Shown here: positions 1-37,288 of the stretch, piece after piece
Position numbering within the stretch: the first letter of the stretch is position 1
Layout: every line of letters starts with the position of its first letter
Assembly (NCBI GenBank): GCA_000993565.1
Contig: LBWK01000001.1
Location: forward strand, 300,208 to 364,207
DNA from: a candidate division WS6 bacterium GW2011_GWF2_39_15
Lineage (GTDB): Bacteria; Patescibacteriota; Dojkabacteria; SC72
Direction: 5' to 3'
Length of the DNA: 64,000 bases
The notes under the pieces: generated by a model
The model's input: the letters and a program-made list of their open reading frames with translations, nothing else
Told to the model about the DNA's origin: nothing
The model's database searches: none
Position numbers and translations under genes: made by a program

Positions 1-972
1 TCTTCTCGTCCACAGGAATAATCAAAGATAATATCTCCTCCTTTGATATAGAAGGATTAAACTGTCTTAACCAATTTATAATATAACTGACAGATTCTTT
101 GATCGGAGTGAGTCTATCACCTTGAGTCATTAGTATACGGGGCATAACACTCGGTTTACCGGGATACTTATCCTTTCTTCCCAATTCTTTGCACTTTGCA
201 ACAAAAGACTTCCAGTTAAGGGATTGCTCTTCACCATGAACATCAAGAAACGGGCTTACAAACTTCCCAACATATACTCCGGTAATACCTTTTGCAAAGC
301 TATATACAACTTTTGGTAGTATGTTTACAAATCTATCTCCAACGCCATTGAGTATATTAATTGCTGTAAATGTATTAATACCCCTTTCTTTAACAGCAGG
401 ATTAGATGCGTATACCTTATATCCCTCTTGGCACAAACTCAACGCAGCCTCTGCCCCTGAAGAGTGACCAACTATAACTGTCTTTTCGGGAGCCCCCCCC
501 ATATACTTGAGCACTATTTTCATCAATTTCTGATACTCCTCACTGCTGACATTTTCCTCACTGGCAGATCCTTCTTTTAGATTGGATCCCCCGAATCCGG
601 GGCAGTCCAGACCTAATGCAAGCCATTTCTTGCTAACCGGCTCAAGGTTTTTACCCAAGCTCGATACGAAAGAATTACCTGAGTCCCACGTCTTGCGATT
701 GGAGGCTAATCCTCCAGCAAGGACAAAACCGCATTCATTAAAAGATTCCTGAATCTCTCCGCTATCTCCCTCCGTCTTTCCCCATGCGTGCAGAGTTAAA
801 CCTTCATATTTATTCAGAAATTCCTTTTCTTCAGTAGGGAGAGGGGCATTCTCCGTATTTATCTTTAGGCTCCATTCTCGAAGACCATCTTTCCTCTGTT
901 TATCTTTTATTTCTTCCACCTCTATTCCGCGATCCTTCCAGGATAGATTTTCTAATGGGATATCTGGATTCA
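1..972 (-). CDS. alpha/beta-hydrolase fold protein (partial, C-terminus beyond window start); paralog of the N-terminal half of the 2107..3984 product
   Basis: Reverse-strand translation from the ATG at 970-972 gives MNPDIPLENLSWKDRGIEVEEIKDK...GLDCPGFGGS...VGHSSGAEA (a GxSxG nucleophile elbow). It is collinear and ~50% identical to the N-terminus of the 2107..3984 protein. Confidence 0.6.
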
Positions 973-1073
973 TATAACGGTATTATACATAAATATTCAG
1001 GATCTTCCATCAGTGTCTCATTTATCCTTTCAAACGATTTATGATACTCTATGTATAATTAGCGTTCATAAAA

Positions 1074-1430
1074 ATGACAAAACCAAAAGAGAATAGTAAC
1101 AATCTCAAGACATTGATAATTGTCGCCGCTATTGTTGTAATAGTCCCCGTTCTTGCCTTAGGGGGGTTGTATCTATACTCCCAATTTCAAATGAATAGAT
1201 TAAAGTCCAATGGTAATTCGAACACTACAGATTTCTGTGCCAGTGTATGGATGCCCTTTGTTACATGTAAAGAAGGGTATACACAAGGATGCGTATACAA
1301 AGACTGCAAATGTGATGACCAAAGAGAGCTAAAAAATATACGTGTAGATGGATGTATTAAAGAGAATGATACCAATACACAGTATTCACTAGATGGAGTG
1401 TGTAAGAAAGCCTGCAAACAAACGGAGTAA
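1074..1430 (+). CDS. small membrane-anchored Cys-rich protein (N-terminal TM helix, 8 Cys in the C-terminal ~60 aa)
   Basis: The ORF has a hydrophobic segment LKTLIIVAAIVVIVPVLALGGLYLY followed by a C-rich domain; no recognisable family. Confidence 0.4.
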   Translation: MTKPKENSNNLKTLIIVAAIVVIVPVLALGGLYLYSQFQMNRLKSNGNSNTTDFCASVWMPFVTCKEGYTQGCVYKDCKCDDQRELKNIRVDGCIKENDTNTQYSLDGVCKKACKQTE

Positions 1431-1503
1431 TGTTTTTTGTAGAAACCTTCCCCTTATATCCTGTATACTTCTAAGACGTTATGTAAAATAAACAAACTTA
1501 AAT

Positions 1504-2100
1504 ATGCTCAAGCAGAAAACACTCGTACTTTTCAAACCTGATGTTGTACAAAGACAAATAGTAGGGGAGATCCTTACAAGATTTGAACGGAAGGGCTTTA
1601 AAATAGTTGGAATGAAGATGGTACTCCCTACGGAGAGTCTTGCAAAAGAACACTACGAAACTACAGATGAACAGATAATTGGAATGGGAAATAAAACAAT
1701 TGTACTTGCTCAGGAACACGGAGAAGATACAAGCAAAATGGATGCACGGGAGATAGGTCTAAAGGTATGGCAAAGAAATGTTGACTATCTAAGCTGCGGC
1801 CCAATATTAGCTATAGTGATGCAAGGACCGCACATAATAGAGTCAGTGAGGAAAATGATTGGAGTTACGAATCCGTTTATGGCTGATGTAGGGACAATTA
1901 GAGCTGATTATTCACCTGATTCAATTACACTCTCATCAAGTAGCGATAGAACAACAAGGACTATGCTACATGCATCAGACAGCGAAAAAAGTGCTCAGAG
2001 AGAAATAGCTCTCTGGTTTAAAAAGGGAGAGATTTTCGAGTACGAGACGGCAATTGAGAAGGTTCTTTTTGATGTAAGCTGGAGTTTGAAGCGTAAATAA
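1504..2100 (+). CDS. ndk: nucleoside diphosphate kinase with a ~50-aa internal insertion
   Basis: N-terminal LVLFKPDVVQR..GEILTRFERKGFKIVGMK and the C-terminal active-site region TMLHASDSEKSAQREIALWF match the NDK signature (catalytic His in 'HASDS'). It is 198 aa against the usual ~140-150. Confidence 0.85.
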   Translation: MLKQKTLVLFKPDVVQRQIVGEILTRFERKGFKIVGMKMVLPTESLAKEHYETTDEQIIGMGNKTIVLAQEHGEDTSKMDAREIGLKVWQRNVDYLSCGPILAIVMQGPHIIESVRKMIGVTNPFMADVGTIRADYSPDSITLSSSSDRTTRTMLHASDSEKSAQREIALWFKKGEIFEYETAIEKVLFDVSWSLKRK

Positions 2101-2106
2101 AGCTTA

Positions 2107-3984
2107 TTATTTGCTATATCTTGATTGCATTAATTTGTTTTTAGCCTCTGCTACTTGAGCAATCTGCTGAAAACCAACGGCTGTACAGATCTTCAAATCT
2201 TCTTTCGCACTTATAAAGCTATCGAAGAACTTACTAAATTTGAAAGATGTTAAATGATGTGCATACATAACAACTAACTGCATAACAATCTCATCTCTTA
2301 CTTTCAAGAAAAAGCTATCTACTAAATCGTCAGTCGGTTCCATTCCTTCTTTCTTCCCAATTACTTTCAATGTGCCTTCTTTGGCCAACTCCGCAAATAT
2401 GGGATGAAGCGAAGTCGCCAAAAAGGTACTTTCACCATCAAAATCGGCACTATAACGGTCAAAAAACCGGACAATGTTTTTCATCTCATTTGCGACAAAC
2501 TCAGGTTCATTTCCAACCTCCACTTTATTTCTTTCGAGTAAGAAAGGGTGAGCTAATACTCTAGTAATTATTGGTTCGATAGCACTCGTAGGGAGCGTTA
2601 CTAAATAGTCATCAAATTGCGGATCTCCGCTATGGGAAGGTATCAGAACCTTATCAAGTTTAGAAAGCTCTTCAGACAAATTAGCAAATGTCTCTAGAGA
2701 GTATGTGATGAATCCGAGCTCCTTAATTCTACTGTTTGAATATTTTATCTCATCCAGTACTCTCTCGTTAAGTTTCAATCCTTGTGCATAATCATCAAGA
2801 AGTGAACTTATTAATCCATTAGAAGCCAAAACAGGGACTTTAAAGTCTTTTTTACCTTTCTTTAAAGCTACATAATCAGTCATACTTCCGGTAACCGCTT
2901 CCGCCACATTATCATCCTCATACATCCCATTATGCCCAACACTCTTTGATAACTCTTCGCTTATCGGGATAATCGTTCTCAAGATTCTCTCCTTTAGACT
3001 ATTACTATCCGTAAACCTGGAAAACCAATCACATATAACGGGGATTGACTCAACAATCGGAGTTAGTTTATCGCCCTGGGCTAGAAGTAAAGTAGGTTCT
3101 ACTGTCGGAGCAATTTTAAGAGGAGAATCGATAAGTTCCAACTCTTTTGATTTATAAACAAACGCCTTCCAAAAAAGCTTTTCCTGTCTAGAGTGAATTC
3201 CTAGCATTTCACCACCAAATTTCCCTAAATACAAAGCAGTGATTCCCACAGCAAAAGGATGAACAATAATAGAAGCGGCAGGAATTCTTTGAACACTATC
3301 ACCAATACCATTTAAAGCATTAATATTTTTGAATGCATTTTCTTCAGAATTTTTAACGGCCGGGTTACACGAAAACACTTTATATCCTTTGGTGCTAAAT
3401 GGCAGCACCGCTTCCGCTCCTGAGGAGTGACCTACTAGAACCGTACTCTTATCATCTGGATTTAAAACTTTTAAAGCTATTGATATTAGCTTTTGATAAT
3501 CTTCACTACTTACATTTTCTACACTTTCTAACCCCTTTTTAAGTGCTGAGCCGCCGAATCCCGGGCAGTCAATTGCAACTCCCATCCACTTTCCGGCAAT
3601 TGGATCAAGTTTTCTTCCTAATCTTGTTACGAACGAGTTTTTCTTTGTATCCCACACTTCATAGTTTGAAGCCAGTCCACCGGCAAAAAGAAGTCCGCAA
3701 TTCATAAAAGCCTCATGCATTTCTTCTATTCCACCTTCAACATTGCCCCAGGCATGAAAGGATAAATCGTCATACTTCTTAAGAAATTCTCTTTCTTCTT
3801 CACTTAAATTAGAGTTCTCAGCATCTATCCTTAGTTTCCATTCTTGTAGACCATCACTTCTTTCTTTATCTTTTATTTCCTCCACAATTAATCCGCGAGC
3901 TTTCCACACAGGGACATTTGAACCCTCAAAGTTTGATGATGAACTGGCTGGATAAATAGAATCTTGTGAATTGTTTTCAGTCAT
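2107..3984 (-). CDS. alpha/beta-hydrolase (esterase/lipase-like, GHSSG motif) with a ~320-aa C-terminal domain of unknown function
   Basis: GLDxPGFGGS and VGHSSGAEA motifs are present; paralogous to the 1..972 product. Confidence 0.6.
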   Translation of the reverse strand: MTENNSQDSIYPASSSSNFEGSNVPVWKARGLIVEEIKDKERSDGLQEWKLRIDAENSNLSEEEREFLKKYDDLSFHAWGNVEGGIEEMHEAFMNCGLLFAGGLASNYEVWDTKKNSFVTRLGRKLDPIAGKWMGVAIDCPGFGGSALKKGLESVENVSSEDYQKLISIALKVLNPDDKSTVLVGHSSGAEAVLPFSTKGYKVFSCNPAVKNSEENAFKNINALNGIGDSVQRIPAASIIVHPFAVGITALYLGKFGGEMLGIHSRQEKLFWKAFVYKSKELELIDSPLKIAPTVEPTLLLAQGDKLTPIVESIPVICDWFSRFTDSNSLKERILRTIIPISEELSKSVGHNGMYEDDNVAEAVTGSMTDYVALKKGKKDFKVPVLASNGLISSLLDDYAQGLKLNERVLDEIKYSNSRIKELGFITYSLETFANLSEELSKLDKVLIPSHSGDPQFDDYLVTLPTSAIEPIITRVLAHPFLLERNKVEVGNEPEFVANEMKNIVRFFDRYSADFDGESTFLATSLHPIFAELAKEGTLKVIGKKEGMEPTDDLVDSFFLKVRDEIVMQLVVMYAHHLTSFKFSKFFDSFISAKEDLKICTAVGFQQIAQVAEAKNKLMQSRYSK

Positions 3985-4116
3985 ATGTAATACGGATTCT
4001 GTGTATTTCTATCTTGATTATACACAATGACTTTAAAGCCACAAGGGAGAGTTATTATCAGCTATTTAAGTTTCACCATAGAGTAGGGGAGTTTCATACA
4101 TCATCTTTAGTAATAG

Positions 4117-4200
4117 ATTGGAATGGAAAATAAAACTATTATACTTGCACAGGGATATGGAGAAGATACTTCCAAAATGAATGCAACAGAAACCGCTGAT
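4117..4200 (+). pseudogene. decayed ndk fragment (remnant of the duplicated insertion-region segment of ndk)
   Basis: Nucleotides 4117-4200 (ggaatggaaaataaaactattatacttgcacagggatatggagaagatac...) align at ~75% with ndk 1678-1760. The encoded MENKTIILAQGYGEDTSKMNATE matches MGNKTIVLAQEHGEDTSKMDARE; the ORF track extends it in-frame to a stop at 4317 (64 aa), but only the first ~23 aa match ndk, so no intact ndk is encoded. Confidence 0.55.
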
Positions 4201-4498
4201 CATCTATTACTTAAAGGGCATCATATTTCGATTAGGTATTTAACTCGACTCCTGGAGAATTTTCTGAAGTATCACTATTTAGCCAAAGCGTTTTACACAG
4301 AAATGAGACCGTCGTAATCTCGCTATCACTCTTTGCAAAAGTGAAAGAGGCGGTATCATCTAAATATATCTGGTCGAAAAGCATCCCACTTTCATCATAC
4401 ACCCTATTTACTGCGTAGTTACTTTCTTCCTCAACTTCTATAATTCCATGGACTATAATATATCTATCTCCATCCCATACCATCGTAGCATATGAATA

Positions 4499-4720
4499 TT
4501 ATTTACCAACGTTAATATAACCCCGGGACTCCATATTAAAGGCACAAACTTCAGGTGATTCAGTGGGCTGAACTCTCAAGTCTTGATTTGTTGAAGACTT
4601 GCACCCTGAAAGAGCCAGACCTAAAATAAGAAATGGAATCGCAAACTGTTTTTTCATAGCGCATATTATATCATAGTTTATTCCAAAATCCTGTTCTACA
4701 AAGCAAAAAATAGCTAACAA
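4499..4720 (-). CDS. small lipoprotein (signal peptide + lipobox LSGC)
   Basis: MKKQFAIPFLILGLALSGCKSS has the n-h-c regions and Cys of a type II signal peptide. Confidence 0.4.
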   Translation of the reverse strand: MLAIFCFVEQDFGINYDIICAMKKQFAIPFLILGLALSGCKSSTNQDLRVQPTESPEVCAFNMESRGYINVGK

Positions 4721-4839
4721 AAAGCAAAGAAATGGGTGTAGTGATTAGAAGCCGTTTCACAAAGCGGAGGAGGTTTCATAATGCTTTATGTTTAACAGTC
4801 TTGGAGTTATACTAAGCGATAATTTATATACAAAACACT

Positions 4840-5316
4840 ATGGATAGCCAGGAATTAAAGTCACTTGTATCAAACTACCTCTCAACTCAGAAACTCATGT
4901 CACTTGCTACTTTTTCCGATACTCCATGGATCGCAAATCTATATTATGTTCATGATAGTGATTTAAATCTATACTTTGTGAGCAAAGCATGGAGAGAACA
5001 CTCAAAAGCTATAGATATCAATCCTAATGTTGCAGTCGCAATTGCAGATTCACATCAGCCTATATATCTCCCTCAGAAAGGAATTCAGTTGCATGGAACG
5101 GCCCAAAAGATTAAAAGTATTAAAAAACTGGAGTGGATGTTTAATATGTGGAATAAGCTGATAACGGAAGGGCAGGGCGAGAAGATGGAAGATCCTAAGA
5201 AGTTCATAGACGCAGCCGTTTCAAATGTATATAAGATCTCACCTAAAAGAATAAAGTTCTTCAACACACAGCTATGGCCGAAAGAGCAGTTTCAGATATT
5301 GGATTTAGCTGATTAA
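4840..5316 (+). CDS. pyridoxamine 5'-phosphate oxidase-like FMN-binding family protein (general stress protein 26-like)
   Basis: Size and the N-terminal pattern ..LMSLATFSDTPWIANLYYVHD..LYFVS are typical of the PNPOx-like split-barrel family; weak. Confidence 0.4.
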   Translation: MDSQELKSLVSNYLSTQKLMSLATFSDTPWIANLYYVHDSDLNLYFVSKAWREHSKAIDINPNVAVAIADSHQPIYLPQKGIQLHGTAQKIKSIKKLEWMFNMWNKLITEGQGEKMEDPKKFIDAAVSNVYKISPKRIKFFNTQLWPKEQFQILDLAD

Positions 5317-5373
5317 TTTCTATATTCTCTCCTTAAAAAAAACATTTCATTTAAATGTTAGAATGTCAATGAG

Positions 5374-5970
5374 ATGCAGATTACAGACACAAATCAAAAA
5401 TCATTCACACTTCCGACACGACTATCATCAAAAGCTCGCGCCCGCTCTTTAACCACCACCATTATCGCTGTCATCGTGCTTATACTCGCATACTCTTTTA
5501 ATATCACCAATCCGGAAAGCCAGCCCGGTGTAAAATCCGCACAAGATTTCAGTATTGATGAGAACAAGTTCTACGAGGTAACAAAGGTAGTAGACGGAGA
5601 TACAATAAAAGTATCTGAATTAGGAACTTTAAGAATGATCGGGATTGATACGCCAGAGATTGTAGATCCGCGAAAACCTGTTGAATGTTTTGGTAGGGAG
5701 GCCTCAGATAAAGCCAAGGATCTTTTATTAGGTAAGAAAGTAAGGTTGGAAGTAGATAATTCACAGGAGAGAATAGACAGGTATGACAGACTGCTTGTTT
5801 ATGTCTATACAAAAGACGGGCTTTTCTTCAATCAGGAGATGATCAGACAGGGGTATGCACACGAATATACGTATTCAGTACCCTACAAATACCAGATTGA
5901 TTTCAGAAATGCACAAAGAGATGCACAGGAGAATAATAGGGGCTTGTGGGGAGCAAAGTGCAATAATTGA
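5374..5970 (+). CDS. thermonuclease (staphylococcal nuclease-like), membrane-anchored/secreted
   Basis: VVDGDTIKV...LRMIGIDTPE...ERIDRYDRLLVYV...GLW is the SNase motif set; an N-terminal TM helix is present. Confidence 0.75.
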   Translation: MQITDTNQKSFTLPTRLSSKARARSLTTTIIAVIVLILAYSFNITNPESQPGVKSAQDFSIDENKFYEVTKVVDGDTIKVSELGTLRMIGIDTPEIVDPRKPVECFGREASDKAKDLLLGKKVRLEVDNSQERIDRYDRLLVYVYTKDGLFFNQEMIRQGYAHEYTYSVPYKYQIDFRNAQRDAQENNRGLWGAKCNN

Positions 5971-6064
5971 ACCGTAACATTTGCCTTCCCCGTATCATGA
6001 TAGTAGAATGTATTAGCGATATAAAACATAGGCTTTAGATATATAAATTATTATCTAAAAACAT

Positions 6065-6538
6065 ATGCTACTTAACAGTCCTTCAATTATTCACGATAGT
6101 GAGATCCCACCCCAATACACTTGTGATGGAGAGAACATCAACCCGCCTTTTACAATCTCCTATGTACCGCAAAATGCACAAAGCCTGGTCTTTCTTGTCG
6201 AAGACCCGGATGCCCCTGCAGGACTATGGGTACACTGGATGATATGGAATATGGATCCTAAAATGACAGAGATAAGAGAAGGTGAAGTACCAAAAGGAGC
6301 TGTCGGAATGAACTCGGGAATGACCAATGACTGGTATCCTATATGCCCTCCAGAAGGAGAACATCGATATCACTTCAAACTCTTCGCTTTAGATACAATG
6401 CTGGAACTGGATGAGAAAACCGTAACAAGAGAAGACCTTCTTGCTGCAATGGAAGATCATATTGTTGCAAAAGCAGAGTTAGTTGGGAGATATACGAAAG
6501 CTGAAAATAAAGTTACTTTGGAACAGCCCACGACCTAG
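6065..6538 (+). CDS. YbhB/YbcL-family phosphatidylethanolamine-binding protein (PEBP)
   Basis: The HRYHFKLFALD motif and the DPDAP motif are present. Confidence 0.75.
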   Translation: MLLNSPSIIHDSEIPPQYTCDGENINPPFTISYVPQNAQSLVFLVEDPDAPAGLWVHWMIWNMDPKMTEIREGEVPKGAVGMNSGMTNDWYPICPPEGEHRYHFKLFALDTMLELDEKTVTREDLLAAMEDHIVAKAELVGRYTKAENKVTLEQPTT

Positions 6539-6611
6539 TCCTTACTCTGTAGCGACAAACTGTAGATATTTTAGTGCTATACTTTGTATAGTAATATCAT
6601 TTTGAACTTGT

Positions 6612-7184
6612 TTGGAAACTGAAAATCCTCAATATATACTACTCATGAAAGCCGGCCCATACTGCGGATACACTCTCCCTGAGATTATTGAGATAAAGCA
6701 GAAAGAAGAGAAGAAGACCGGAAAATTCTTCTGGGGATATAGCGGAGTTTTTTGTCATCCAAAAACACTGCAAAACTTTGTTCTTCAATCTATATCAAAT
6801 AGCAAAAAGGTATATATCCTGCTCACCGAAACGAAGTCCTCATTTGAAACTCCAAAGGTTGAACAGTTCACAAAGTATTCTACAGATACTAACCACTGGT
6901 TAAATCTACCTGAAGAAATCCTCCTGGTTGGCAATAAATCCAGACCTCACTTTGCAATAACGGGAAACAAATTACATGCTGTAGAGATGAATCTGGATAT
7001 AAGCCAATACTGTCTGTTGAATGGTTTACTAATAAACAAGGACCGATATCTAAACAACTACTTTAAATACAGAGTAGACAAAGCCTGCGGTTACTATTCC
7101 CCAAGAGAAGACTATACAGAAAAGATAATAAAAGTGAACTATCTAGCAGAACTGGTTTCTCCATACTCAATCTATATAAAGTGA
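6612..7184 (+). CDS. hypothetical protein
   Basis: Long ORF in coding-like context; no recognisable motifs. Confidence 0.35.
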   Translation: METENPQYILLMKAGPYCGYTLPEIIEIKQKEEKKTGKFFWGYSGVFCHPKTLQNFVLQSISNSKKVYILLTETKSSFETPKVEQFTKYSTDTNHWLNLPEEILLVGNKSRPHFAITGNKLHAVEMNLDISQYCLLNGLLINKDRYLNNYFKYRVDKACGYYSPREDYTEKIIKVNYLAELVSPYSIYIK

Positions 7185-7289
7185 GGTGAATCAACATTTG
7201 GGTGGTTTTTGATCTTTACCCACAACTCCTCTACTCTCACAAGATATTGCCCTACTTCTAATTGATCCCTTTTATCCTTCGGAGTATAA

Positions 7290-7721
7290 TTGCATATTTC
7301 ACTGCCAATAAATTATAAAACAAGTCAAATGGCGGATACCTCACAGGTCGCAATACAAGACCACGAAGGAACTAGCGAAAGCCCTGCAGTCGCAGAGGCA
7401 AAAAAGGCTCTTAGAAAGTGGGGCGTAGAATTAGAAGAGACTGAAATAACCATACAGACTGTTGGTGATGTAAATGCTCTAAACCAAGGAGAGTTCTTCT
7501 TCAGCTCTAGTTCATACAGAAATTTAGTCCTTGCTTTAAAAGAAGGCCCAGATGGTATATCCGTGATAATCGGTGACCCAACACAATATGATCAGGGAGT
7601 GGCAGTACTCCCTTTTAGTGTATTCATAAACTTTATTATGTCGGGAGATATTCTCGTTGAGTGTGGGACGAGTTTTAATGACGTAAACCTAAAAGAATTA
7701 TATCCTACCGTCTATCAATAG
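7290..7721 (+). CDS. hypothetical protein
   Basis: ORF only; no recognisable motifs. Confidence 0.3.
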   Translation: MHISLPINYKTSQMADTSQVAIQDHEGTSESPAVAEAKKALRKWGVELEETEITIQTVGDVNALNQGEFFFSSSSYRNLVLALKEGPDGISVIIGDPTQYDQGVAVLPFSVFINFIMSGDILVECGTSFNDVNLKELYPTVYQ

Positions 7722-7740
7722 ATATCTGACACGATATTAA

Positions 7741-9729
<1,989 letters not shown>

Positions 9730-9766
9730 CCTTTATATTCTTTCCTTACAGGCTTATAATCCCAGT

Positions 9767-10753
9767 ATGCTTCTAACAATACCCGCTACATATCCTGAAC
9801 AGACTGTAATCAAGTACTATCAAACTGTTCAATCTCCTCTGTTTGTAGGTCTGGACTCAGCCGTTCTACTTAAATCCACTGAGAAATACCTCGACACTGT
9901 TAAGCCCTCAGGAATAATACTGCTGGGTAACAATATTGAGAATTATGAACAGACTAAAAAATTGATCTCAGATATAAAAAAATATGCACAGAAAAAAGGT
10001 ATTAGTATAGAGATCTCCATCGATGAAGAAGGAGGGCTTGTTTCAAGATTAAAAAATTTAAACGGATATCCCAGAGACTTTACGGGAATCAGCGATTACA
10101 ATTCGAAAACCGCCTCCAAACAGGCTGACTATATGAAGCAGATTGGAATAAACCTAAACTTAGCACCCGTTGCTGACATCGCGTACAAAAACTCTGTGAT
10201 GACAACCAGAAGTGCAGGAGAGACCTCGGTTAAAGTATCTGAGGTTATTTCATCATATATAGATATTCTTCACGCAAATAATATTGAGAGCTCTGTAAAG
10301 CACTTTCCCGGTCTCGGAAGAACCACCTCTGACACGCATTTCTCTCAAACTACGGTGGGAATAAACTACAGGCAGTGGTTAGTTACAGACTCAATCCCTT
10401 TTAAGACTGCCGTCGATAACGGGACAGATTATGTAATGACAGGACATGTTATTTACAACCAAATAGACTCACTTCCTGCGAGTATATCTCCAAAATGGAC
10501 CGAGATATTAAGAAACGAGCTTCACTTTGAAGGCAGGATTATAACCGACGATTTAAAGATGGTAGGGGTAGGGGAGTATGGAAACACCTATCTATGTAAT
10601 AACAAAAAGAAAGTTTCAGGGAAAGATAAGTATGCTGTCATAATAAAGAAGGCTTTAGATGCAGGAACCAACAACCCTTTGCTCATTCTTAACCAGCAGG
10701 ATACTATCAATGCTACAAAAGATTGGATACTCATTGAAAAAGAGTGTATATAA
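9767..10753 (+). CDS. glycoside hydrolase family 3 N-terminal domain protein (beta-N-acetylhexosaminidase NagZ-like)
   Basis: KHFPGLGRTTSDTHF matches the KHFPGHG motif, with an upstream DEEGG.V.R motif. Confidence 0.7.
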   Translation: MLLTIPATYPEQTVIKYYQTVQSPLFVGLDSAVLLKSTEKYLDTVKPSGIILLGNNIENYEQTKKLISDIKKYAQKKGISIEISIDEEGGLVSRLKNLNGYPRDFTGISDYNSKTASKQADYMKQIGINLNLAPVADIAYKNSVMTTRSAGETSVKVSEVISSYIDILHANNIESSVKHFPGLGRTTSDTHFSQTTVGINYRQWLVTDSIPFKTAVDNGTDYVMTGHVIYNQIDSLPASISPKWTEILRNELHFEGRIITDDLKMVGVGEYGNTYLCNNKKKVSGKDKYAVIIKKALDAGTNNPLLILNQQDTINATKDWILIEKECI

Positions 10754-10789
10754 CAATATAATGAGATATTAATTTGAAAATATCGCACG

Positions 10790-11617
10790 ATGATTAATCT
10801 TGAAAACGCTGTAAAATTCCCCTTTGAGGATAAAGACTGGCTCAAAACAGTCGGGGTATATTTTTTGATCAGTTTAGGACTTGCGATAATAACCTTTGTA
10901 CTTCAGACAACTTTTCAACTTCCTGCAGATATCTTTAATACAATAGCAAAAGAAACTGAGACTGAGTCCTTTAAATATCTTGCAACCAGTACAAACGCCA
11001 TTTCGGCTTTTTTCAATATGATTGTATCTTTGGTTACATTCCCGGTAACCTTGTACCTATCAGGTTATCTCTTTGATGTGGTAGGACATATCATGTATGG
11101 AAAGAAGCCCGAAATCACTCCGCATGGAAATATATGGCAGAGGGTAAAGTTTGGGATTGTGAAGGTGGTAATAGGATTTGTGCTTGGTATGACTTCTCTT
11201 CTGCTCCTTGGATTTCCCATACTTACAGGAGCAGCAGCTGCAATATCGATGGAAAGCATGATTGTAGTGAGCATCCTTTTATGGATTGCGACAGGAGTTC
11301 TTTTCCTTTTATGGCTTTTTACCTGCGTCATAATAGTAAAGTTTGCAATGTACAGCATGGAGTATTTGTATCTATCCGAAGGATTCAAAAATGTCTTTGT
11401 TCTTTCAAAAGTTTCGGCCCTCATTTCCAACAACTGGAAAAAGTATCTTCTCCTTCTTGGGCTTGAGATATTAGGGGCGATAGCAATCTCCCTCTCCTTT
11501 GTCACATGCTGTATGGCCTTCTTTGTATACCCGGCAGTAGCAACCGTTGTAGCATTTGCTTTGGCATACTGTTACGGCACTGTATACAAGGAGATATATA
11601 CCTCTTCTAGGGTTTAA
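10790..11617 (+). CDS. polytopic membrane protein, unknown function
   Basis: Multiple hydrophobic helices. Confidence 0.4.
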   Translation: MINLENAVKFPFEDKDWLKTVGVYFLISLGLAIITFVLQTTFQLPADIFNTIAKETETESFKYLATSTNAISAFFNMIVSLVTFPVTLYLSGYLFDVVGHIMYGKKPEITPHGNIWQRVKFGIVKVVIGFVLGMTSLLLLGFPILTGAAAAISMESMIVVSILLWIATGVLFLLWLFTCVIIVKFAMYSMEYLYLSEGFKNVFVLSKVSALISNNWKKYLLLLGLEILGAIAISLSFVTCCMAFFVYPAVATVVAFALAYCYGTVYKEIYTSSRV

Positions 11618-11680
11618 CAAAACCGCCTTTTTAGGGTATCATGGTTAGACAGGCAACGTATAATTTAGATACTACAAGTT

Positions 11681-14461
11681 ATGAACGACGAGAAGGATAA
11701 GATTGTGAAATTGGCAACAGAACAGGATCCAGAAACAAATACACCAGAAACTCCACCAGTGGTTGAAACAGAATCAGAAGACGGAGGAGATGATGAAGGA
11801 CTTTCATTTAATACAGAGTTCAAACCAGGTGAGATAGCAGACAGTTCCATTTCAGATGAGATGAAGACCCGCTACATCGACTACTCAATGTCCGTAATTG
11901 TTTCAAGAGCACTTCCTGAGGTAAAAGATGGTTTGAAACCGTCGCAGAGAAGAATTCTCGTTGCAATGAACGACATGAACCTGATTCCTTCCGCGCACTA
12001 CAGAAAATCAGCAAAAATAGCGGGTGATACTTCAGGTAACTACCACCCGCATGGAGAGGTCGTTATCTATCCTACAATGGTTAAAATGGCTCAGGATTTT
12101 TCAACCCGATACCCGTTAGTAGACGGGCAGGGAAATTTTGGTTCAGTAGACGGGGACCCTGCGGCTGCAATGAGATACACGGAAGCCAAGATGTCAAAAA
12201 TTACAGTGGAACTCCTTCGAGACCTTGAGAAGGGAACCGTCCCTTTTATTCCTAACTATGACGGTACAAGACTGGAACCCACTGTTCTTCCTGCTGCAAT
12301 TCCACAGCTTCTGGCAAACGGAAGCGATGGTATAGCCGTTGGTATGGCAACAAAAATTCCTCCTCACAACCTCACAGAACTAATTACCGCACTGCGCGAA
12401 ATGATCAAGAGAGGAAACAAGTGGGAAGGAAAAGCTATCTATAACGAGCTCAGACTTGATAGAGAAAAGGGAGAGAGAATCCCTATGACCCTCGACCCCA
12501 GACCAGTTGACTACCTTGGCAACTATATAAATAAATATAGTCTGGAGTATGAAAAGCAGAGAGAAGCAATTGCTCTTCGCATTAAAACCGACGAGCGTCT
12601 GTACCCTGAATTCAAATCTGAAATAACGCCTGAAGAACTCATCAACATAATTCCCGGACCTGACTTTCCCACAGGAGGAACTATTTATGACAGGAATGAG
12701 ATTCTGAATGCATATTCAACCGGTAGAGGAAGGATTCTTCAAAGGGCGAAAGCATCTATTGAAGAGGGAAAGAAAGGCAGATACGAGATAATTGTAACTG
12801 AGATACCTTTCCAGGTTAATAAAGCATACCTGACCGAAAAGATTGCTGATTTGGTGAAAGAGAAGAAGGTTGAAGGTATTGCAGATATCCGTGACGAGTC
12901 TAACAGAGAGGGGATGAGAGTTGTAATAATCCTGAAAAAGGATGTCCAGCCGAAAACAGTCCTAAACAAGCTCTACAAGTTTACAGAGATGCAAAAGGTC
13001 TTCAATGCCAATATGATTGCCCTTGTTGAGCAGGAGCCAAAGACACTTCCTCTAAAACAGATGCTGGAGCTATTTTTAAGCTTCAGAATCTCAGTTGTAA
13101 TTAGAAGATTTGAGTTTGATTTAGCAGAGGCAAGGTATAGAGGACATATACTTGAAGGCCTGCTTAAAGCACTAGATATTCTTGATGACATTATTGCCAC
13201 AATACGAGGTTCAAAAACCCAGGAAGAGGCCAAAACCAACCTTATTTCCAAATTTGACTTTACAGAGGTACAGGCACAGGCCATTCTTGAGATGCAGCTC
13301 AGAAAACTCGCTGCTCTGGAGAGAGAGAAACTGCAGGATGAATATAAAGAATTAGGTGAAAAGATTAAAGAGTATACCTTAACCCTTGCAGACCCAATTA
13401 AGATCCTTGGAGTGATCGACGCAGAATTATCCGAGATCGTTGAGAAACACGGTGACGCAAGAAGATCTAAAGTCATTAAAGGCAAGATTGATGAAATTTC
13501 TGAGGAGGATATGGTCGCGGCTGAAAATACACTAGTAACCTTGAGCCACTCGGGATACATAAAGAGGATTCCTCCTGATACATACAGGACTCAGAATAGA
13601 GGAGGAAAGGGTATTACAGGTGCCACGACAAAGGAAGATGACTGGATCTCGCACGCCATTTTGTGCAATACACATGATGACTTGATGTTCTTCAGCAACA
13701 GGGGAAGAGTATTCAGAATAAGGGCATTTGAGATCCCAGAGTATGGAAGAACAGCTAAAGGCCTTCCGATTGTGAACCTCATCTCTTTGGAACAGGGTGA
13801 ATTGATCACAAGCGTTCTTAATATCAGCAGGAACAGTGACGAATCAGGAGTTACATATAAGTTCCTTTTCATGGCTACGAAAAAAGGGACAGTCAAAAAG
13901 ACTGACATTAAAGACTTCGAAAAGATTAGAGCAACCGGATTAATAGCAGCAAAGCTCGAAGGAAGCGACGAACTGCTCAAAGTGATTCCAACCTCAGGGG
14001 AAAGTGAGATCATTATGGTAACAAGAGAAGGTAAGTCAATCAGGTTTAAAGAGGAGGATGTAAGGCCGACAGGAAGGGCTACGATGGGAGTACGCGGTAT
14101 TAAGTTTGCCAAAGACAATGATGAAGTGATATCCATGGATGTTATGGTATCAGAAGAGGGTAATTTCTTTACCCTTTCTGAAAAAGGCTTTGGAAAGATG
14201 AGTAAATTAAGTGATTACACTCTGCAGGGCAGAGGAGGATCAGGTATCTTTACCTTTAGGGTAACCGATAAGACAGGAAAGTTGGTAGTTGCAAAAATTG
14301 TTGATAATAAAGACGAAAGTGAAATAGTCGTGATATCAGAAAACGGCGTAATTATAAGAACGGAGATGAAAAACCTTCCTATTCTTCAGCGCCAAACCTC
14401 GGGAGTAAAAATTATGAATGTCGCAACAGAGGATAAAGTTTCTGCAATTGCCGTAATTTAG
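11681..14461 (+). CDS. gyrA: DNA gyrase subunit A (with acidic N-terminal extension)
   Basis: [22 protein letters not shown] (catalytic Tyr region) and [23 protein letters not shown] are present, with C-terminal beta-pinwheel repeats; 926 aa. Confidence 0.95.
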
Positions 14462-29907: not shown

Positions 29908-32900
29908 ATGGGACTTAACGCCGGTGGTATGCAAGAAATACATCCTGATATCCAGTCAGATAGAGAGTTAATAACCTCTGGTAAAGTTCCTCAGGGAACT
30001 GCTGAAGCTAATGACAAATTAAATACTCCAGTAGTAGATATTACAAAGACAACTGGTTATTATGGGAATGATTTAACAACCGATCCTCTCCCGCTTACTG
30101 CTGAAGCGACAGCAAAGATACTTAGAAGAGGTCCTGCACAAAATGAAGATAATGGAGAAACAGGCTTGAAAGCCGGCGAGGAAAGACCTAAAACTCAATC
30201 TGCTATTCCTGTAGCCAACGGATCAGCTTATGTCGAATCAGTTAGTCCTTCAACCCCTGCACAGCAGACACCAGACACCGAAGGACTTGATCAACTTAAT
30301 ACCCCCTTATATACGCTTACTGGAGGAGGAGAGACCACTTCGACTAATGTAACTACGCCAAATGCAACAGAAGGTAAAGCAGGTAAAAACGGTACTGATA
30401 CATCAGATGACTTAGTAGCAAAGCTAAGATCAATGTTGTCCCAGGCTGACAAAGATAAGCCTAAAGAACACACTATAGAAACACCTGTAGCCCAGGATCT
30501 CAATCAGGCAGTTACAGCTTTGGCTGCAGAAGTTGCTAAGGAACCTGAAAATAATTCAAAGAAGGAAGAGTTGAACGGCTTAAAGGAATTAAGTCAATCT
30601 GTAACGAACCTCTCACAACAGATAAACCAGGTGAAAATAGAAATCACAAATCAAGTTAATACTCAGGTTGCCCAAATTACTGCAAAGATGGAAGAATCTA
30701 AAGATAAGCTGGCAGGAACGGTAAACCACTATTATATGCAAGGGGGCTCAGTATTTCACGGGACAGTAGGAGCAGGTACACATATAGAAGTTACAAATAC
30801 GGCAAGTAATTTTAATACAGGAGCAGCAGGAATAAGCGTTAGAAATACAGCAGACCACGGAAGTACAATAAACAATGGCAATATTGTAGATGCAGGTGTT
30901 AATCTGGGTATACTAGATTTGAATGCAATGATGGAAGAAGCTGAAAATTTGGACAGGCTTGCAGACGAACCAGAAGCGCCAACTTCTCTAAGTGAGGCGG
31001 CAAGGGACACAGCCGATAAGGCGAGAGAGCTTACAGAGGATATAAAGACAAGAAAAACTGATCGAGTAACAGATCCGGCAGTTACACCTGATTCAAGTTC
31101 AACAACTCATCCACCCGTAATAAAACCTCAACCAAATGTAACACCGAACGATAATCCTCCTACACCTCCACAACCGGCAGTAGCAGTAACAGATGACAGT
31201 AGTGAGCATAAAGACACCGGAGTAACCCCAGAAGAGCAACCTACTTCCGATCCTAAGAAAGCAGCAGAGAATCTAGTAGGGCCATTGACTCCTGAAGAGT
31301 CACAGGAATTTGATAATGCGAATGAAAAGAAAGGTTTTCTCTTCAGCATAAAGAGAATGTTCAGCGGTGAAAACTGGAAGAGATGGGTACCAACAGTGAT
31401 AGGGTCGATCGCAGGTTCATTCGGGGTAAAACTGTTTGCAGGAGCAGCTCTATCAATGGGTCCAATTGGAACCGCATTACTCGGAGGTGCAATGGCTGGT
31501 TTTGCCATATATTCAGGATATAGAGCTATCAAGAACTTAAGTGAGGCAGCCAAGGCGGAAGGTAAATCTGTATGGCAGGTAATGGGCAACTTGGATTTTG
31601 TAAAAGGAGCCTTACTTGGAGGATTAATTTCTGGGGTAGGTAAAGCTTCAGCGAAGTTTATCCCTGGATTCGGTTCGCTTATGGCACTTGGACTTGAAGG
31701 AGGAACTTCGTGGCTATTTGAAAATCACCTTAACAAGAAACAGCAGGAATTAGTTAACAAATACATGGATACATACCAGGCACGCAGGTATGCAAATCTT
31801 AAGGATAAAGGATATGTCATTAGAGGTGCTGAAGGAGCACCTGCTGTAGGAATGGAATCCATACTTAAAGATATGACAAGTGCACCTTCAGAATCAGAAA
31901 AGAAGGTAGCAAAGAGAGCTGCACTTGCTTCCCTTATACATCTCTACAGCATAACTAAGGATGATGCCCATAAATTTGTTGAGTATACGATAAAGGAGAA
32001 CGGTGTCGATAAGGTGATTAAGGTTGATATTACACAAATTGCGATTGATGAAGCAGAAGGAAGTACAGAGAAATACAGAATGCTTCAACTTAAAGATACT
32101 GACAAGATTAATGTCGAGAAATTTATAGATACATTAGATACAGCCAAACTTACATCAGCGATTCAAGATGCATGGAACAAAACCGATGCAACTAAGAGGG
32201 CTGATATGGCTAAGGATCTTGTAAACCTCTTCGTTGGCTTGGAAGGCACAGAAGTAGAGAAGATTATGTCGGAAGAGAGAAAGAGCTATCTCTCATGGAT
32301 CAACTTCACAACTGGGTTACACTTTGGTATGGCGGCAGTAAATGTTGGATCCTCTCTTGCAGGAGCTTACGGAGCATTCAGAGACAATTTTGGTGTCAAT
32401 CATGATGCACAGGGAGTAAACACCTCAGATTCTCAACAAGCAACAGAAGATTATAGAAGTGCCCATCCAGAAGCCCCGCAGGCAGAAGTAGAGAGGGTAG
32501 TAAATGCTGAAGGCCACATAATTGATAAGGTAGATGTAGACGGAGGCGGCGTAGACTACTACGTCGACCAAACTACAAACCAATATGTTGTACTTTCTGG
32601 GACCGGTGCTGAAAGCGTATTTGAAATACAACACCCGGATCTTGGACAGGTAACCGCAACTGAAGTAACTACCCACGGAGATACAGGCATTGTTGCCACT
32701 TTGAGTGATAATGCAGGAAAAGTTGTTGGTGTAACATATGCCGACTCTACTGGACACATTGGAGTTTTGGATATGAACGGCGTAGGTCAGCATCTATTTG
32801 CAGGTGGAGGAGAGAGCCCAATACACGGAGTAACTCTCACTGATATACAGCCAAATGGTGATGCAACATTAGTTTTAGACAATGTAAACCATCAAGTAAA

Positions 32901-35259
32901 TCTAGGAAATCTTAACCTTGAACTTGACGGATCATCAACATCAGAGGTTCAGACACAGATTGGTGTATTGATGCCACAGAGTGGAGATTCAGTAAATAGT
33001 ATGCTTCACCATACAATTGAACAGGCTAAAACTCTGAATCCTAATTTGCAACAATATGACAATCTGGAACTTGAGAGAATGCTTTACCAGGAAGGAAGTG
33101 GTATCCATGCTAATGACGCCGCGATAAGGCAGGAGTTAGGTATCAGGGGAGCACTTGATGTATCAGAGGAATGGAGCTGGAAAGATTCACCTACAATTAT
33201 GTCCTGGCTAACGGAGCTTAACGGTGGGAATACTGTGGAACTAGGTTCACAGACAGTTACAGGCGGAACACCTGGTGTAAACACTTTCTTTGAAGGGCCG
33301 GAAGTTTCCGCATTTGACGTTGCAAATGCAGGATCTGCACCTGGAGAATCAGGTGGCTTTATCAGTGTAATGGATAGAATCGTAGAGCCATCACTTCTTG
33401 CTTTGGTAGGTGGTGTGATGGCAGGTGTATTTGCTTCACAACCTAAGAGTGGCGGTATTTCAAGGCAGAACGATGTAAATACCGCAACGGCAAAAGCCGG
33501 TGATGATAAGACAAAAGATGACAAAGGCAAGGGAGTAAGCAAAGAAACCTCAGTTGAATTAGCAGCAGGAGAAGGAGCTGTTGAAAAGAAAGTCGGAGGG
33601 CCAAAGGATGTAATCGTAAATCAGATACTTAAGAACGTTATACCTAATAAATATGTTGAGATAGCTGGAAAGAAATATATTCAGGTAGAGAGTGCACCTG
33701 GGCAATGGAAAGAAAAAGATGTTAAAGACGCCCAGCCTATATCAGCTGAAGACCTTGCAGATCTACTCTTGAATCAAACGGATAAGAATCTAAGAAGTAA
33801 AGATCTATCTGGAATACTTAATAGTGCGGCCATCAAAGGTGGGGCAACTATAAAATTAACGGAGGAAGATGGTTCTGAGACAACATATAAGAAGTCCGTA
33901 AAAGACAATGAACCAGGAAAGAGGCCTGTCAAATTAGTATCATGGATTAACACAGAGACAAAGAAGAGTAGCGATGTTCTAACTAGCGATGCACTTGCGA
34001 CCAAGATCCTTGATTTGAAGGAAAAGACAGTTACAGTATCAACGCCATCTGGAAGTCCACAAGGAGGACCAAGTGCTGAAGCTGGTGGAGACGAAACAAA
34101 GAAAGAGGGTGAGGTAGATAAGGAAAAAGCTCTGAAAGAAACTTTAAACAATATATTAGAAACTCTTCATATTGATAAAAAGCAAGTTGTTATTAATGGT
34201 GAAAAATACGAATATAACAAGGATGCCAAAATATGGATAAAGTCAGGTGCATTGTTCAACAAGAATCTAATTCAGAAAGGCTCTGATAATCTTAGTGACC
34301 AGCAAGTTGTTGAATCCTGGATTAAACTTGAGTCAAAACAGCTTGGGAAGGATTTGGAAACAACTCTTGGGAACGTCGACAGTGGGAAAAAGATAAATGT
34401 TATTGACGAAATATTTAGTAAGACACCGACCTCAGTATTGAAACAAGCAAATTACAATGGCGATGTTTATACTTATGATTCAGAAAAAGATGTATGGAAT
34501 AAGGATAAAAAGAGTAAAACGGCAAGTCCAAAGAGTATCACAGGATCTGGAATGACAACCTATATAGCGAATGGTACGGCCAACGCACTCCCAAGCAAAA
34601 AAGAAAATCTGATTTGGAAATCAGATACCAGAGCTTTTAATGACAAAGATTTGGCATTAGAAATTGCAAAACTGAGGGTAAGCACTAAGGAAGTAAAGTC
34701 TGAAACAAAATCCGCAGACAGTAATGCAGAAGGGGAAAAGAACAAGGAAGAAAAAGAGAAGAAAGAAAGTAAGGGCAGAAAACTCCTTAAGACAGCGCTT
34801 ATAGTATTAGCCGTAGCAGGAGGTATTACCTCATATGCAGTTGGTGGTTGGCAAGTAGCAGCAATTACATCAGGCATCAGCTGGTTGACGACACTTGGTC
34901 TAAATATCGGAGAAGGTTTGGCACAAAAAGGTATAAGCAAGAGACAAGCCGAAGCCGCTGAACTAGCAGAAAAGCTTAAAAACGAGAAACGAGCACTGAA
35001 GCCTGATGAAGAAAAGTCGTTGGAGGAAAGGAAGAGGAAGGACGAAAGGGCTAGAAATATTATTTATTGGCTCAAATTTGCCAGTAAAGTCACGGGTGCC
35101 CTATCAATATCATCTGGAGCTTCTGCACTGTTAGGTTTAGTGATTGATAAGTTCCAGATTAACATAAAAGGAATAATCGGAGGTGCTTTCAATAGACCAG
35201 AGATAAACCAAGTTCCTTTTGAACAAACAATAGACGAATCACTTAACTTAGGAAAGTAA
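29908..35259 (+). CDS. giant (1783 aa) membrane-anchored protein with low-complexity regions, Gly-rich TM segments and a 55-aa module shared with the 35741..37288 product
   Basis: Continuous ORF. TM-like segments at about aa 490-540, 560-600 and 1640-1720. Shared module at aa 275-330 (YYMQGGSVFHGTVGAGTHIEVTNTASNFNTGAAGISVRNTADHGSTINNGNI). Degenerate G-x-Y-x-Y...W-x-K repeats at about aa 1200-1500. Confidence 0.6.
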   Translation: MGLNAGGMQEIHPDIQSDRELITSGKVPQGTAEANDKLNTPVVDITKTTGYYGNDLTTDPLPLTAEATAKILRRGPAQNEDNGETGLKAGEERPKTQSAIPVANGSAYVESVSPSTPAQQTPDTEGLDQLNTPLYTLTGGGETTSTNVTTPNATEGKAGKNGTDTSDDLVAKLRSMLSQADKDKPKEHTIETPVAQDLNQAVTALAAEVAKEPENNSKKEELNGLKELSQSVTNLSQQINQVKIEITNQVNTQVAQITAKMEESKDKLAGTVNHYYMQGGSVFHGTVGAGTHIEVTNTASNFNTGAAGISVRNTADHGSTINNGNIVDAGVNLGILDLNAMMEEAENLDRLADEPEAPTSLSEAARDTADKARELTEDIKTRKTDRVTDPAVTPDSSSTTHPPVIKPQPNVTPNDNPPTPPQPAVAVTDDSSEHKDTGVTPEEQPTSDPKKAAENLVGPLTPEESQEFDNANEKKGFLFSIKRMFSGENWKRWVPTVIGSIAGSFGVKLFAGAALSMGPIGTALLGGAMAGFAIYSGYRAIKNLSEAAKAEGKSVWQVMGNLDFVKGALLGGLISGVGKASAKFIPGFGSLMALGLEGGTSWLFENHLNKKQQELVNKYMDTYQARRYANLKDKGYVIRGAEGAPAVGMESILKDMTSAPSESEKKVAKRAALASLIHLYSITKDDAHKFVEYTIKENGVDKVIKVDITQIAIDEAEGSTEKYRMLQLKDTDKINVEKFIDTLDTAKLTSAIQDAWNKTDATKRADMAKDLVNLFVGLEGTEVEKIMSEERKSYLSWINFTTGLHFGMAAVNVGSSLAGAYGAFRDNFGVNHDAQGVNTSDSQQATEDYRSAHPEAPQAEVERVVNAEGHIIDKVDVDGGGVDYYVDQTTNQYVVLSGTGAESVFEIQHPDLGQVTATEVTTHGDTGIVATLSDNAGKVVGVTYADSTGHIGVLDMNGVGQHLFAGGGESPIHGVTLTDIQPNGDATLVLDNVNHQVNLGNLNLELDGSSTSEVQTQIGVLMPQSGDSVNSMLHHTIEQAKTLNPNLQQYDNLELERMLYQEGSGIHANDAAIRQELGIRGALDVSEEWSWKDSPTIMSWLTELNGGNTVELGSQTVTGGTPGVNTFFEGPEVSAFDVANAGSAPGESGGFISVMDRIVEPSLLALVGGVMAGVFASQPKSGGISRQNDVNTATAKAGDDKTKDDKGKGVSKETSVELAAGEGAVEKKVGGPKDVIVNQILKNVIPNKYVEIAGKKYIQVESAPGQWKEKDVKDAQPISAEDLADLLLNQTDKNLRSKDLSGILNSAAIKGGATIKLTEEDGSETTYKKSVKDNEPGKRPVKLVSWINTETKKSSDVLTSDALATKILDLKEKTVTVSTPSGSPQGGPSAEAGGDETKKEGEVDKEKALKETLNNILETLHIDKKQVVINGEKYEYNKDAKIWIKSGALFNKNLIQKGSDNLSDQQVVESWIKLESKQLGKDLETTLGNVDSGKKINVIDEIFSKTPTSVLKQANYNGDVYTYDSEKDVWNKDKKSKTASPKSITGSGMTTYIANGTANALPSKKENLIWKSDTRAFNDKDLALEIAKLRVSTKEVKSETKSADSNAEGEKNKEEKEKKESKGRKLLKTALIVLAVAGGITSYAVGGWQVAAITSGISWLTTLGLNIGEGLAQKGISKRQAEAAELAEKLKNEKRALKPDEEKSLEERKRKDERARNIIYWLKFASKVTGALSISSGASALLGLVIDKFQINIKGIIGGAFNRPEINQVPFEQTIDESLNLGK
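30730..30887 (+). repeat. copy A of a ~158-bp inverted repeat (in-frame, inside the giant gene)
   Basis: About 90% nucleotide identity to the reverse complement of 37091-37246. Confidence 0.8.
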
Positions 35260-35740: not shown

Positions 35741-37288
35741 TTATTCTCTAACCCTTACAAACTCACTTTGTGATACAAAATGTATCCCGGTATCTGCTTG
35801 AAACACCTTTCTTCCTTCTTCAAACCACTTACCTTCAGGTGGATTGATCGAAGTCAGAATACCCAAGTATACAAAAGCTAAAAGCTGACATCCTGCCGGA
35901 GATTTATCAAACTTCTGCAACTTTGTATTTACTTTTGCTTTCTGTAATTCATTAAGTTCATCAGTTTCAAGAGGGGAGAGAAGATTGAATGAGCCTTTTT
36001 CTTCAATCATTATTCTAAATACTGAATTGAACTGCATATTCATATTACTAGCCAACCAATGTATTTTTTCTGAAGGTGTAAAATCGTCCCTCCAACCATC
36101 TGGGATTCTATCTTTTCGGATACCACCTTCCATTGGATCCACATAGTGAATTACATATCCTCCAAAGGCTTCATCTTTCACAGGAGTACTCAATATCGCA
36201 CGCGCATGTCCGCCAATATGACGATCCTGGGAAGAATAGTAGATACCAACCGGAATTCCCCATCTGTCTCCAAGCTTTGCCATATCAGTTACATTTATCT
36301 CAGTCTCTCTATTGGCATAGCTATCTAGACGGGGAACATCATCCTGTGCTCTTGGCCAGACATCATGATCAGGAAGTTCATCCGTTGTAATGTGGAATTC
36401 GGCTGGCCTACCAGGTTCCCTTGTTTCATGAACGTTTAGGTCATCGATATAAGGAGGTACAAAACCATGCAAAAGGTACTCTCTAACATCGGAACCTTTC
36501 TGGGACAAGATTTTCCTGAACATATCTTCAAGATAATTCGCAACGGTCAGGTTCCTATTTACCCAATGCTGAACCAGTGAGGCATCCATAATGGGTTCCT
36601 CAAGTAGAACAGCTGGAACCTCAACCATTAACCGGCTATGATCTTCCTGCTCTCGGATTATTAGGATAAATAAAGGGTTTTCTTTAGTATCAGAATCCAG
36701 TTCATCTTCTTTTGTCACAACAATATCAACGACGTCTTCATCCTCTTTTGTTTCAATATCAGGGTAAATACTAACCATGTCTTCAAGGTTTTCACCTAAG
36801 GCTTCAGTGAGTTGCATTTGATTTTTTACAATTTGTATTTGGTCATCAATGCTATCTATTTCCTCGCTTATGTCTAAATCTCCGTGATCTGTACTCGTAT
36901 GTGGAGCTGTTTCTTCTCCTTTTGGTCGCAGCGGCTCATCAGATTTTGAAGGAATTGTGGATACCGGAGTTGCACTGTCTACTTTCTGAGGTTCTGGGGT
37001 TGAGGTCTTCTTTTCTGTATCATCAAAGGTAGCAGCTTCTTCCATTGTAGTATCCTGTGTCAAAGTTTTCAGACTAGTCTTTGTGACGGCAATATTGCCA
37101 TTGTTTATTGTGCTTCCATGGTCTGCTGTATTTCTAACGCCTATTCCGACTGCTCCTGTATTGAAATTACTTGCCATATTTGTAACTTCTATATGGGAAT
37201 CTGATCCTACTGTTCCGTGAAATACTGAGCCCCCATGCATATAATATTCATTTGAAGATTCAACACTTTTCTTCCTTTGACCATTCAT
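35741..37288 (-). CDS. 515-aa protein with the shared N-terminal module (aa 15-70) and an unrelated C-terminal body
   Basis: N-terminal YYMHGGSVFHGTVGSDSHIEVTNMASNFNTGAVGIGVRNTADHGSTINNGNI, followed by an acidic linker and a ~300-aa C-terminal domain. Confidence 0.5.
   Translation of the reverse strand: MNGQRKKSVESSNEYYMHGGSVFHGTVGSDSHIEVTNMASNFNTGAVGIGVRNTADHGSTINNGNIAVTKTSLKTLTQDTTMEEAATFDDTEKKTSTPEPQKVDSATPVSTIPSKSDEPLRPKGEETAPHTSTDHGDLDISEEIDSIDDQIQIVKNQMQLTEALGENLEDMVSIYPDIETKEDEDVVDIVVTKEDELDSDTKENPLFILIIREQEDHSRLMVEVPAVLLEEPIMDASLVQHWVNRNLTVANYLEDMFRKILSQKGSDVREYLLHGFVPPYIDDLNVHETREPGRPAEFHITTDELPDHDVWPRAQDDVPRLDSYANRETEINVTDMAKLGDRWGIPVGIYYSSQDRHIGGHARAILSTPVKDEAFGGYVIHYVDPMEGGIRKDRIPDGWRDDFTPSEKIHWLASNMNMQFNSVFRIMIEEKGSFNLLSPLETDELNELQKAKVNTKLQKFDKSPAGCQLLAFVYLGILTSINPPEGKWFEEGRKVFQADTGIHFVSQSEFVRVRE
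37091..37246 (-). repeat. copy B of the ~158-bp inverted repeat (in-frame, 5' end of the 515-aa gene)
   Basis: Reverse complement aligns to 30730-30887 with ~13 mismatches across ~156-158 nt. Confidence 0.8.

Follow-up and report, generated by a model that had tools for sequence, protein, structure and literature searches.

A short ndk-derived island beside an ancient hydrolase duplication in a Dojkabacteria genome

The described processes that come closest to the locus reported here are tandem segmental duplication that leaves a pseudogene relic, short-patch double illegitimate recombination, known as SPDIR, and ectopic (non-allelic) gene conversion. SPDIR was defined experimentally in Acinetobacter baylyi and is described as using single strands of intragenomic origin to make patches of 3 to ~100 bp (bioRxiv 10.1101/2023.11.22.568220). 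We analysed a 64-kb stretch of DNA, hereafter the window, from the candidate division WS6 (Dojkabacteria) bacterium GW2011_GWF2_39_15, and all coordinates are window positions. At its start, two paralogous genes for predicted serine hydrolases, hydA and hydB, are separated by ndk, the gene for a nucleoside diphosphate kinase (NDK), and a 75-nt island derived from the coding sequence of ndk lies in the non-coding gap upstream of hydB.

With a tandem segmental duplication and its pseudogene relic the locus shares direct paralogs and a fragment of the intervening gene in a collinear position and orientation, but neutral divergence varies at least 5-10-fold between the parts of the presumed unit, and the island is a clean block of 75 nt and not the product of graded decay. 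SPDIR likewise places a short ectopic patch of intragenomic origin at an unrelated site with sharp borders, and 75 nt is within its size range; the likeness is, however, in outcome alone, as junction microhomologies and the pre-insertion sequence are not recoverable here. Ectopic gene conversion also yields a short high-identity tract in unrelated or diverged DNA, which holds for the island and for a 157-nt tract elsewhere in the window, but it requires prior homology at the recipient site, and none is detectable around the island. The locus is a specific and previously undescribed instance of known phenomena, real but fairly ordinary.

An earlier sequence-only reading of this DNA held that the whole unit, from hydrolase to ndk, had been duplicated once and that the second ndk had then decayed. 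Part of this stands, since the hydrolases are true collinear paralogs, the island comes from the genome's own ndk and its position and orientation are collinear. The single event is not supported, because of the gap in age between the parts and the lack of traces on either side of the island. A caution follows: collinear position alone suggested one duplication, while divergence at neutral sites shows parts of very different age.

The island, the hydrolase paralogs and their relative ages

In a blastn self-comparison of positions 1-4500, the stretch 1678-1746 within ndk matches 4117-4185 with 84.1% identity over 69 nt (E 4.5e-16). The match is still strong against the whole window (E 9e-14), in which the ndk piece has just two copies. 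Over its full length the island, 4117-4191, is identical to 1678-1752 at 60/75 positions; the remnant had been described as ~85 bp long, at 4117-4200, and while its similarity to ndk is confirmed its extent is reduced accordingly. The 15 mismatches are distributed 5/4/6 over the three codon positions, and one of them replaces a Gly that is nearly invariant in NDKs. The island has neither an NDK domain nor the HASD motif and is not an NDK gene. As it matches the ndk of its own genome better than it matches the nearest orthologs (60/75 against 42/75), it arose late in this lineage.

The borders of the island are abrupt, the adjoining 30-100 nt being 25-37% identical to the corresponding flanks in ndk. 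On the left, local alignment of 3985-4116 with 974-1677 was no better than that of shuffled sequences (p = 0.09), and the same was true on the right for 4192-4840 with 1753-2100 (p = 0.19). Between the spacer at 974-1073 and the DNA upstream of hydB there is no significant similarity, and tblastn searches with ndk and with the 118-aa protein encoded upstream of it found no trace of other NDK parts or of the 118-aa protein around the island, nor a second copy of the 118-aa gene in the window. Besides hydB, what is present of a second unit amounts to 75 of the 597 nt of ndk and to nothing of the 118-aa gene.

The hydrolase genes give collinear matches in the same self-comparison, a kind of check that had been proposed for the observation and that bears it out: 528-940 aligns with 3491-3906 (67.5% over 419 nt, E 1e-29) and 389-478 with 3352-3441 (69.6%), where ~70% had first been given for such blocks. 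The part of hydA inside the window encodes a protein 52% identical to that of hydB over 320 aa (E 2e-110), and the full proteins (590 and 625 aa) are collinear from end to end at 39% identity. The paralogy had been placed in the N-terminal half of the second gene, where it is indeed found, but it is not limited to that half. Smaller corrections concern the first gene, whose start codon at 971-973 makes it 1-973 and not 1-972, and the shared motifs, among which VGHSSGAEA is common to both proteins as claimed while GLDCPGFGGS and CNPAVK shrink to DCPGFGGS and NPAVK.

For the comparison of ages, hydA and hydB were placed on a codon alignment and silent matches were tested against the expectation from the codon usage of the window. 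Synonymous differences reach a proportion (pS) of 0.72 for the N-terminal half and of 0.77 for the whole alignment. Where the amino acids are identical, 24/85 four-fold third positions match (28%), and outside the first 50 codons the number of silent third-position matches, 58/146, is that expected (58.5). The silent sites of the hydrolases are completely saturated, so the 67.5% nucleotide identity is carried by protein constraint. Set against the four-fold sites of the hydrolases, the 60/75 identity of the island is far higher (Fisher p = 4e-11), and its distance of ~0.2 substitutions/site is at least 5-10-fold below the hydrolase silent distance; in this comparison the ndk side is constrained and the island side is presumably free to evolve. 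With saturated hydrolases on the one hand and an 80%-identical island on the other, it follows that the copying of the island, or its last homogenisation, came long after the split between the hydrolases. A neutral relic as old as that split should be unrecognisable, hence one duplication followed by decay does not fit. Under a single duplication all parts of the unit would show the same divergence at unconstrained sites, and they differ.

Possible origins of the island

We favour an account in which two events of very different age have been superimposed, an ancient duplication of the hydrolase and a later, short ectopic copying of ndk DNA, and we judge its chances of being correct to be about even. 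In the older event a rare two-domain serine hydrolase gene was duplicated in this lineage, and its two copies, hydA and hydB, came to lie in direct orientation. Much later, a piece of ~75 nt of ndk coding sequence would have been copied into the 247-nt gap upstream of hydB, over a distance of about 2-2.4 kb on the same replicon. The route that we infer is illegitimate and template-dependent, in that a short single-stranded patch would have been incorporated at a replication fork or a repair site, as happens in SPDIR, or a template switch would have taken place, and the island, which has no demonstrated function, would then have drifted neutrally. Of the non-coding gaps within ~3 kb of ndk, the one that received the copy is among the two largest; given this proximity, a 1-in-2 chance of the observed orientation and the size of the gap, the collinear position is just mildly surprising.

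Several points weigh against the two-event account. The island is located exactly at the site expected for a second ndk and in the right orientation, for which a model of one duplicated unit needs no chance at all. Direct reading revealed no recognisable junction microhomology at either end of the island, which has diverged by ~20% since the event, and the pre-insertion sequence is not recoverable, so that the mechanism can only be inferred and not verified. The collection searches found no close relative with both hydrolases and without the island. Moreover, the argument from age assumes a neutral island, and selection on its nucleotides would make it look younger.

The collinear position is accommodated without chance by a modified form of the earlier reading, a duplication of the entire [hyd - 118-aa gene - ndk] unit in ancient times, after which the second ndk would long have stayed functional, or been repeatedly homogenised with the first by gene conversion, until two recent deletions spared the 75 nt, the promoter region of hydB and the end of the neighbouring gene. 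We regard this as possible but doubtful. Besides the place and orientation of the island, it is favoured by the arrangement of two direct hyd copies separated by ndk, which arises most simply by duplicating a segment that contains ndk, and by the spacing of 132 nt from the hydB start to the island, which is near the 100 nt that separate hydA from the 118-aa gene. Later exchange between units would also fit the first ~50 aligned hydrolase codons, where 18/26 silent matches are found against 11.3 expected (z = 2.7), but as a sign of gene conversion within the hydrolases this 5' excess is not significant after scan correction (p = 0.14). The model needs concerted evolution of ndk beside hydrolases that diverged to saturation, and two independent deletions, after which the island stood clean and neither flank kept any residual similarity. 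A redundant ndk kept for long would be unexpected in an 869-kb genome, and the ndk loci of relatives that we examined have no second ndk. The high identity of the island despite its non-coding place could instead reflect selection that keeps it ndk-like, because it acts in antisense to ndk mRNA, as part of the hydB 5' leader or of read-through from the 83-aa gene, or because it begins a real 64-aa protein; this we consider improbable. The duplex predicted between a minus-strand transcript of the island and ndk mRNA reaches -94 kcal/mol, compared with -34 +/- 5 for shuffles, and contains perfect complementary runs of 10, 9, 11 and 7 nt, yet an antisense role for such a transcript, made together with hydB, is speculative. 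On the other side, the even spread of mismatches over codon positions and the replaced Gly indicate no constraint at the protein level, and the island was found in no other genome. The region 3985-4235 shows no unusual RNA structure (folding z-scores 0.1 and 1.0), has no Rfam hits even at E <= 1, and contains promoter-like and terminator-like matches at chance frequency. Although an open reading frame (ORF) of 64 codons is open from the Met of the island, this is unlikely to be a gene: it has no Pfam match and, on direct reading, no proper ribosome-binding site, went uncalled in the public assembly, and runs antisense to the called 83-aa gene, whose 3' end it overlaps.

That the island is an artefact, either an assembly chimera or a chance match, is very improbable. 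The genome does come from a metagenome, and another sample contains a low-coverage, probably chimeric contig with 75 nt of hydB. However, the E values given above make chance a poor explanation, the 15 differences from ndk mean that the island is not a misplaced ndk read, and two independent assemblies are the same at every base: contig L001, which megahit assembled from a groundwater run, is 100% identical to window 1-13,984 with the island included. The locus is present on seven long contigs. Contig L001 also extends 7.9 kb past the window start, from which the full hydA was recovered (L001:13012-14784).

A second short patch in the window bears on the two-event account. Positions 37090-37246 and 30730-30886, 6 kb apart and inverted, are identical at 144/157 nt (92%) with sharp borders, and encode the same module of ~52 aa (YYM.GGSVFHGTVG...STINNGNI) in frame in two ORFs of 515 and 1783 aa, whose products lack Pfam matches and show no relationship outside this module. 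The patch has the look of a sub-gene module recently transferred between unrelated genes. It cannot be a decayed tandem duplicate, and provides an independent example of short ectopic copying in this genome. The more specific proposition, that short-patch templated insertion of DNA in a bacterium of the candidate phyla radiation gave rise naturally to the island as a fixed product, and to the 157-nt patch as another, strikes us as unlikely. If it were true, a reduced genome would be shuffling sub-gene segments by an illegitimate single-strand route. With close relatives sequenced, the locus could become a dated natural example of short ectopic patches in very small genomes.

Another candidate source of the two similar segments, the template and variable repeats of a diversity-generating retroelement, was rejected, as 7/15 mismatches fall on A with the island as template and 4/15 with ndk as template. 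The conservation of the ndk segment among orthologs is further against it.

Genes of the locus

The features discussed are listed in Table 1.

Table 1. Features of the locus and of the second short patch, in window positions
Feature	Position	Strand	Remarks
hydA	1..973	-	N-terminal 324 codons; full two-domain protein of 590 aa; cut by window start
Intergenic spacer, 100 nt	974..1073	.	Divergent, between hydA and the 118-aa gene
118-aa Cys-rich protein gene	1074..1430	+	N-terminal membrane anchor; upstream of ndk
ndk, long-form nucleoside diphosphate kinase, 198 aa	1504..2100	+	Pfam NDK E 1.8e-39
Donor segment of ndk, codons 59-83, IGMGNKTIVLAQEHGEDTSKMDARE	1678..1752	+	Inside the ~34-aa insertion of long-form NDKs
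hydB, 625-aa paralog of hydA	2107..3984	-	Convergent with ndk, 6 nt apart
Non-coding gap, 247 nt	3985..4231	.	From the stop of the 83-aa ORF to the hydB start; holds the island
ndk-derived island, 75 nt	4117..4191	+	60/75 identical to 1678-1752, same orientation, mid-gap
64-codon ORF	4123..4317	+	Starts at the island Met; from the ORF list
83-aa called gene	4232..4483	-	Occupies the site expected for the 3' part of a second ndk
1783-aa ORF	29908-35259	+	Patch module at residues ~275-327
515-aa ORF	35741-37288	-	Patch module at the N-terminus

Both hydrolases combine an N-terminal alpha/beta-hydrolase fold with a helical C-terminal domain of ~250 aa, for which no match was found. In hydB the predicted catalytic triad is Ser187 / Asp305 / His351, in conserved GHSxG, GDxLTP and GH(N/D) motifs. 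Two alignments were made, of 8 and of 15 sequences. Residues H186, S187, G189 and D305 do not vary in either of them; G185 and H351 do not vary among the 8 sequences and reach at least 90% conservation among the 15. The AlphaFold model of hydB has a predicted local distance difference test score (pLDDT) of ~90 for residues 30-380 and matches alpha/beta hydrolases in Foldseek (E 2e-6 to 1e-4) at 10-16% identity. It shares with ABHD6 (7OTS) and an aryl esterase (1VA4) the fold, the GHSxG elbow and the conserved Asp and His, and differs from them in its low sequence identity and its additional C-terminal domain. With a nucleophile elbow, acid, His and fold all predicted, we assign the pair to the serine hydrolases of the alpha/beta-hydrolase fold, and claim no curated family, as the match to Pfam Abhydrolase_6 is sub-threshold (20.5 bits against a curated cut-off of 26.3).

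The family is very rare. An exhaustive HMMER scan of 1.84 billion representatives gave 19 hits at E <= 0.001, the best of them with 31% identity, and a word-indexed protein search with hydB returned hydB alone. hydA itself was absent from the results of both protein searches, although its paralog hydB appeared. Apart from one probably chimeric fragment described below, the relatives have at most ~34% identity; neither hydA nor hydB thus has a closer known relative than the other, and the duplication therefore took place within this lineage. Both copies keep the catalytic Ser, Asp and His and are presumably functional, and that so rare a two-domain family keeps two diverged copies in a genome of this size suggests that both are needed.

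The ndk product, which the source record also names as NDK, is a full member of the NDK family, with a Pfam NDK (PF00334) score of 135 bits against a cut-off of 27 and a conserved catalytic His in H156-A-S-D. Its Pfam match falls in two stretches because of an insertion of ~34 aa at about aa 57-90, the extent of which was judged against short NDKs such as 2CWK. The fragment in the island had been equated exactly with this insertion, which was called lineage-specific. The island, corresponding to aa 59-83, does lie within the insertion, but the insertion is by no means confined to this lineage: it is present and alignable in 16/16 Dojkabacteria NDKs aligned, and nearly all of the listed Dojkabacteria homologs are 190-215 aa long. 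The best solved relative, the Pyrobaculum aerophilum long-form NDK 1XQI, resembles the window ndk from end to end and aligns straight through the inserted segment (E 1e-34). Judging from these alignments, the insertion is an old trait of the subfamily and neither recently inserted nor mobile. A mobile insertion inside ndk, similar to a miniature inverted-repeat transposable element (MITE), was rejected, since the segment is found in all 16 aligned NDKs and in 1XQI and has only two copies in 64 kb. The long-form NDK subfamily thus spans bacteria of the candidate phyla radiation and the crenarchaeal P. aerophilum. By our own estimate, a random 75-nt piece of ndk would fall inside the insertion ~5% of the time, which is a curiosity noted a posteriori.

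Next to the gap, the 83-aa gene shares its frame with a lipoprotein-like ORF that lies upstream of it at 4499-4720 (-), in which an internal start gives MKKQFAIPFLILGLALSGC, and a single TAA at 4499-4501 parts the two. Window 4232-4720 (-) may therefore be one stop-split gene, either a pseudogene or one that is read through, rather than two genes.

Relatives and synteny

The closest ndk loci, L002 and L003 (70-71% aa identity), L004 (62%) and L013 (55%), each have a single ndk and no hydrolase nearby. Conversely, the distant hydrolase homologs P0122, P0123 and P0124 are single-copy and lie in unrelated contexts with no ndk nearby. The small ORFs that relatives have upstream of ndk show no detectable kinship to the 118-aa protein. 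A scan of genome contigs with the hydA/hydB alignment gave no closer relative, and a scan of metagenome contigs for the DNA pattern of island and ndk found nothing. Synteny in the sampled relatives does not decide between the accounts given above. The neighbours of the rare hydrolase relatives are varied and include BacA, DUF2142 or an Fe-hydrogenase-like gene.

One apparent hydrolase relative, the fragment P0136 on contig L005 (NODE_156707, sample ERZ4902887; 678 nt, ~1x coverage), was rejected as such and is most likely an assembly chimera. Its positions 376-450 are 75 nt with 98.7% identity to hydB 3268-3342, between AT-rich and GC-rich flanks unrelated to hydB. The contig does show that the sample contains this organism or one closely related to it.

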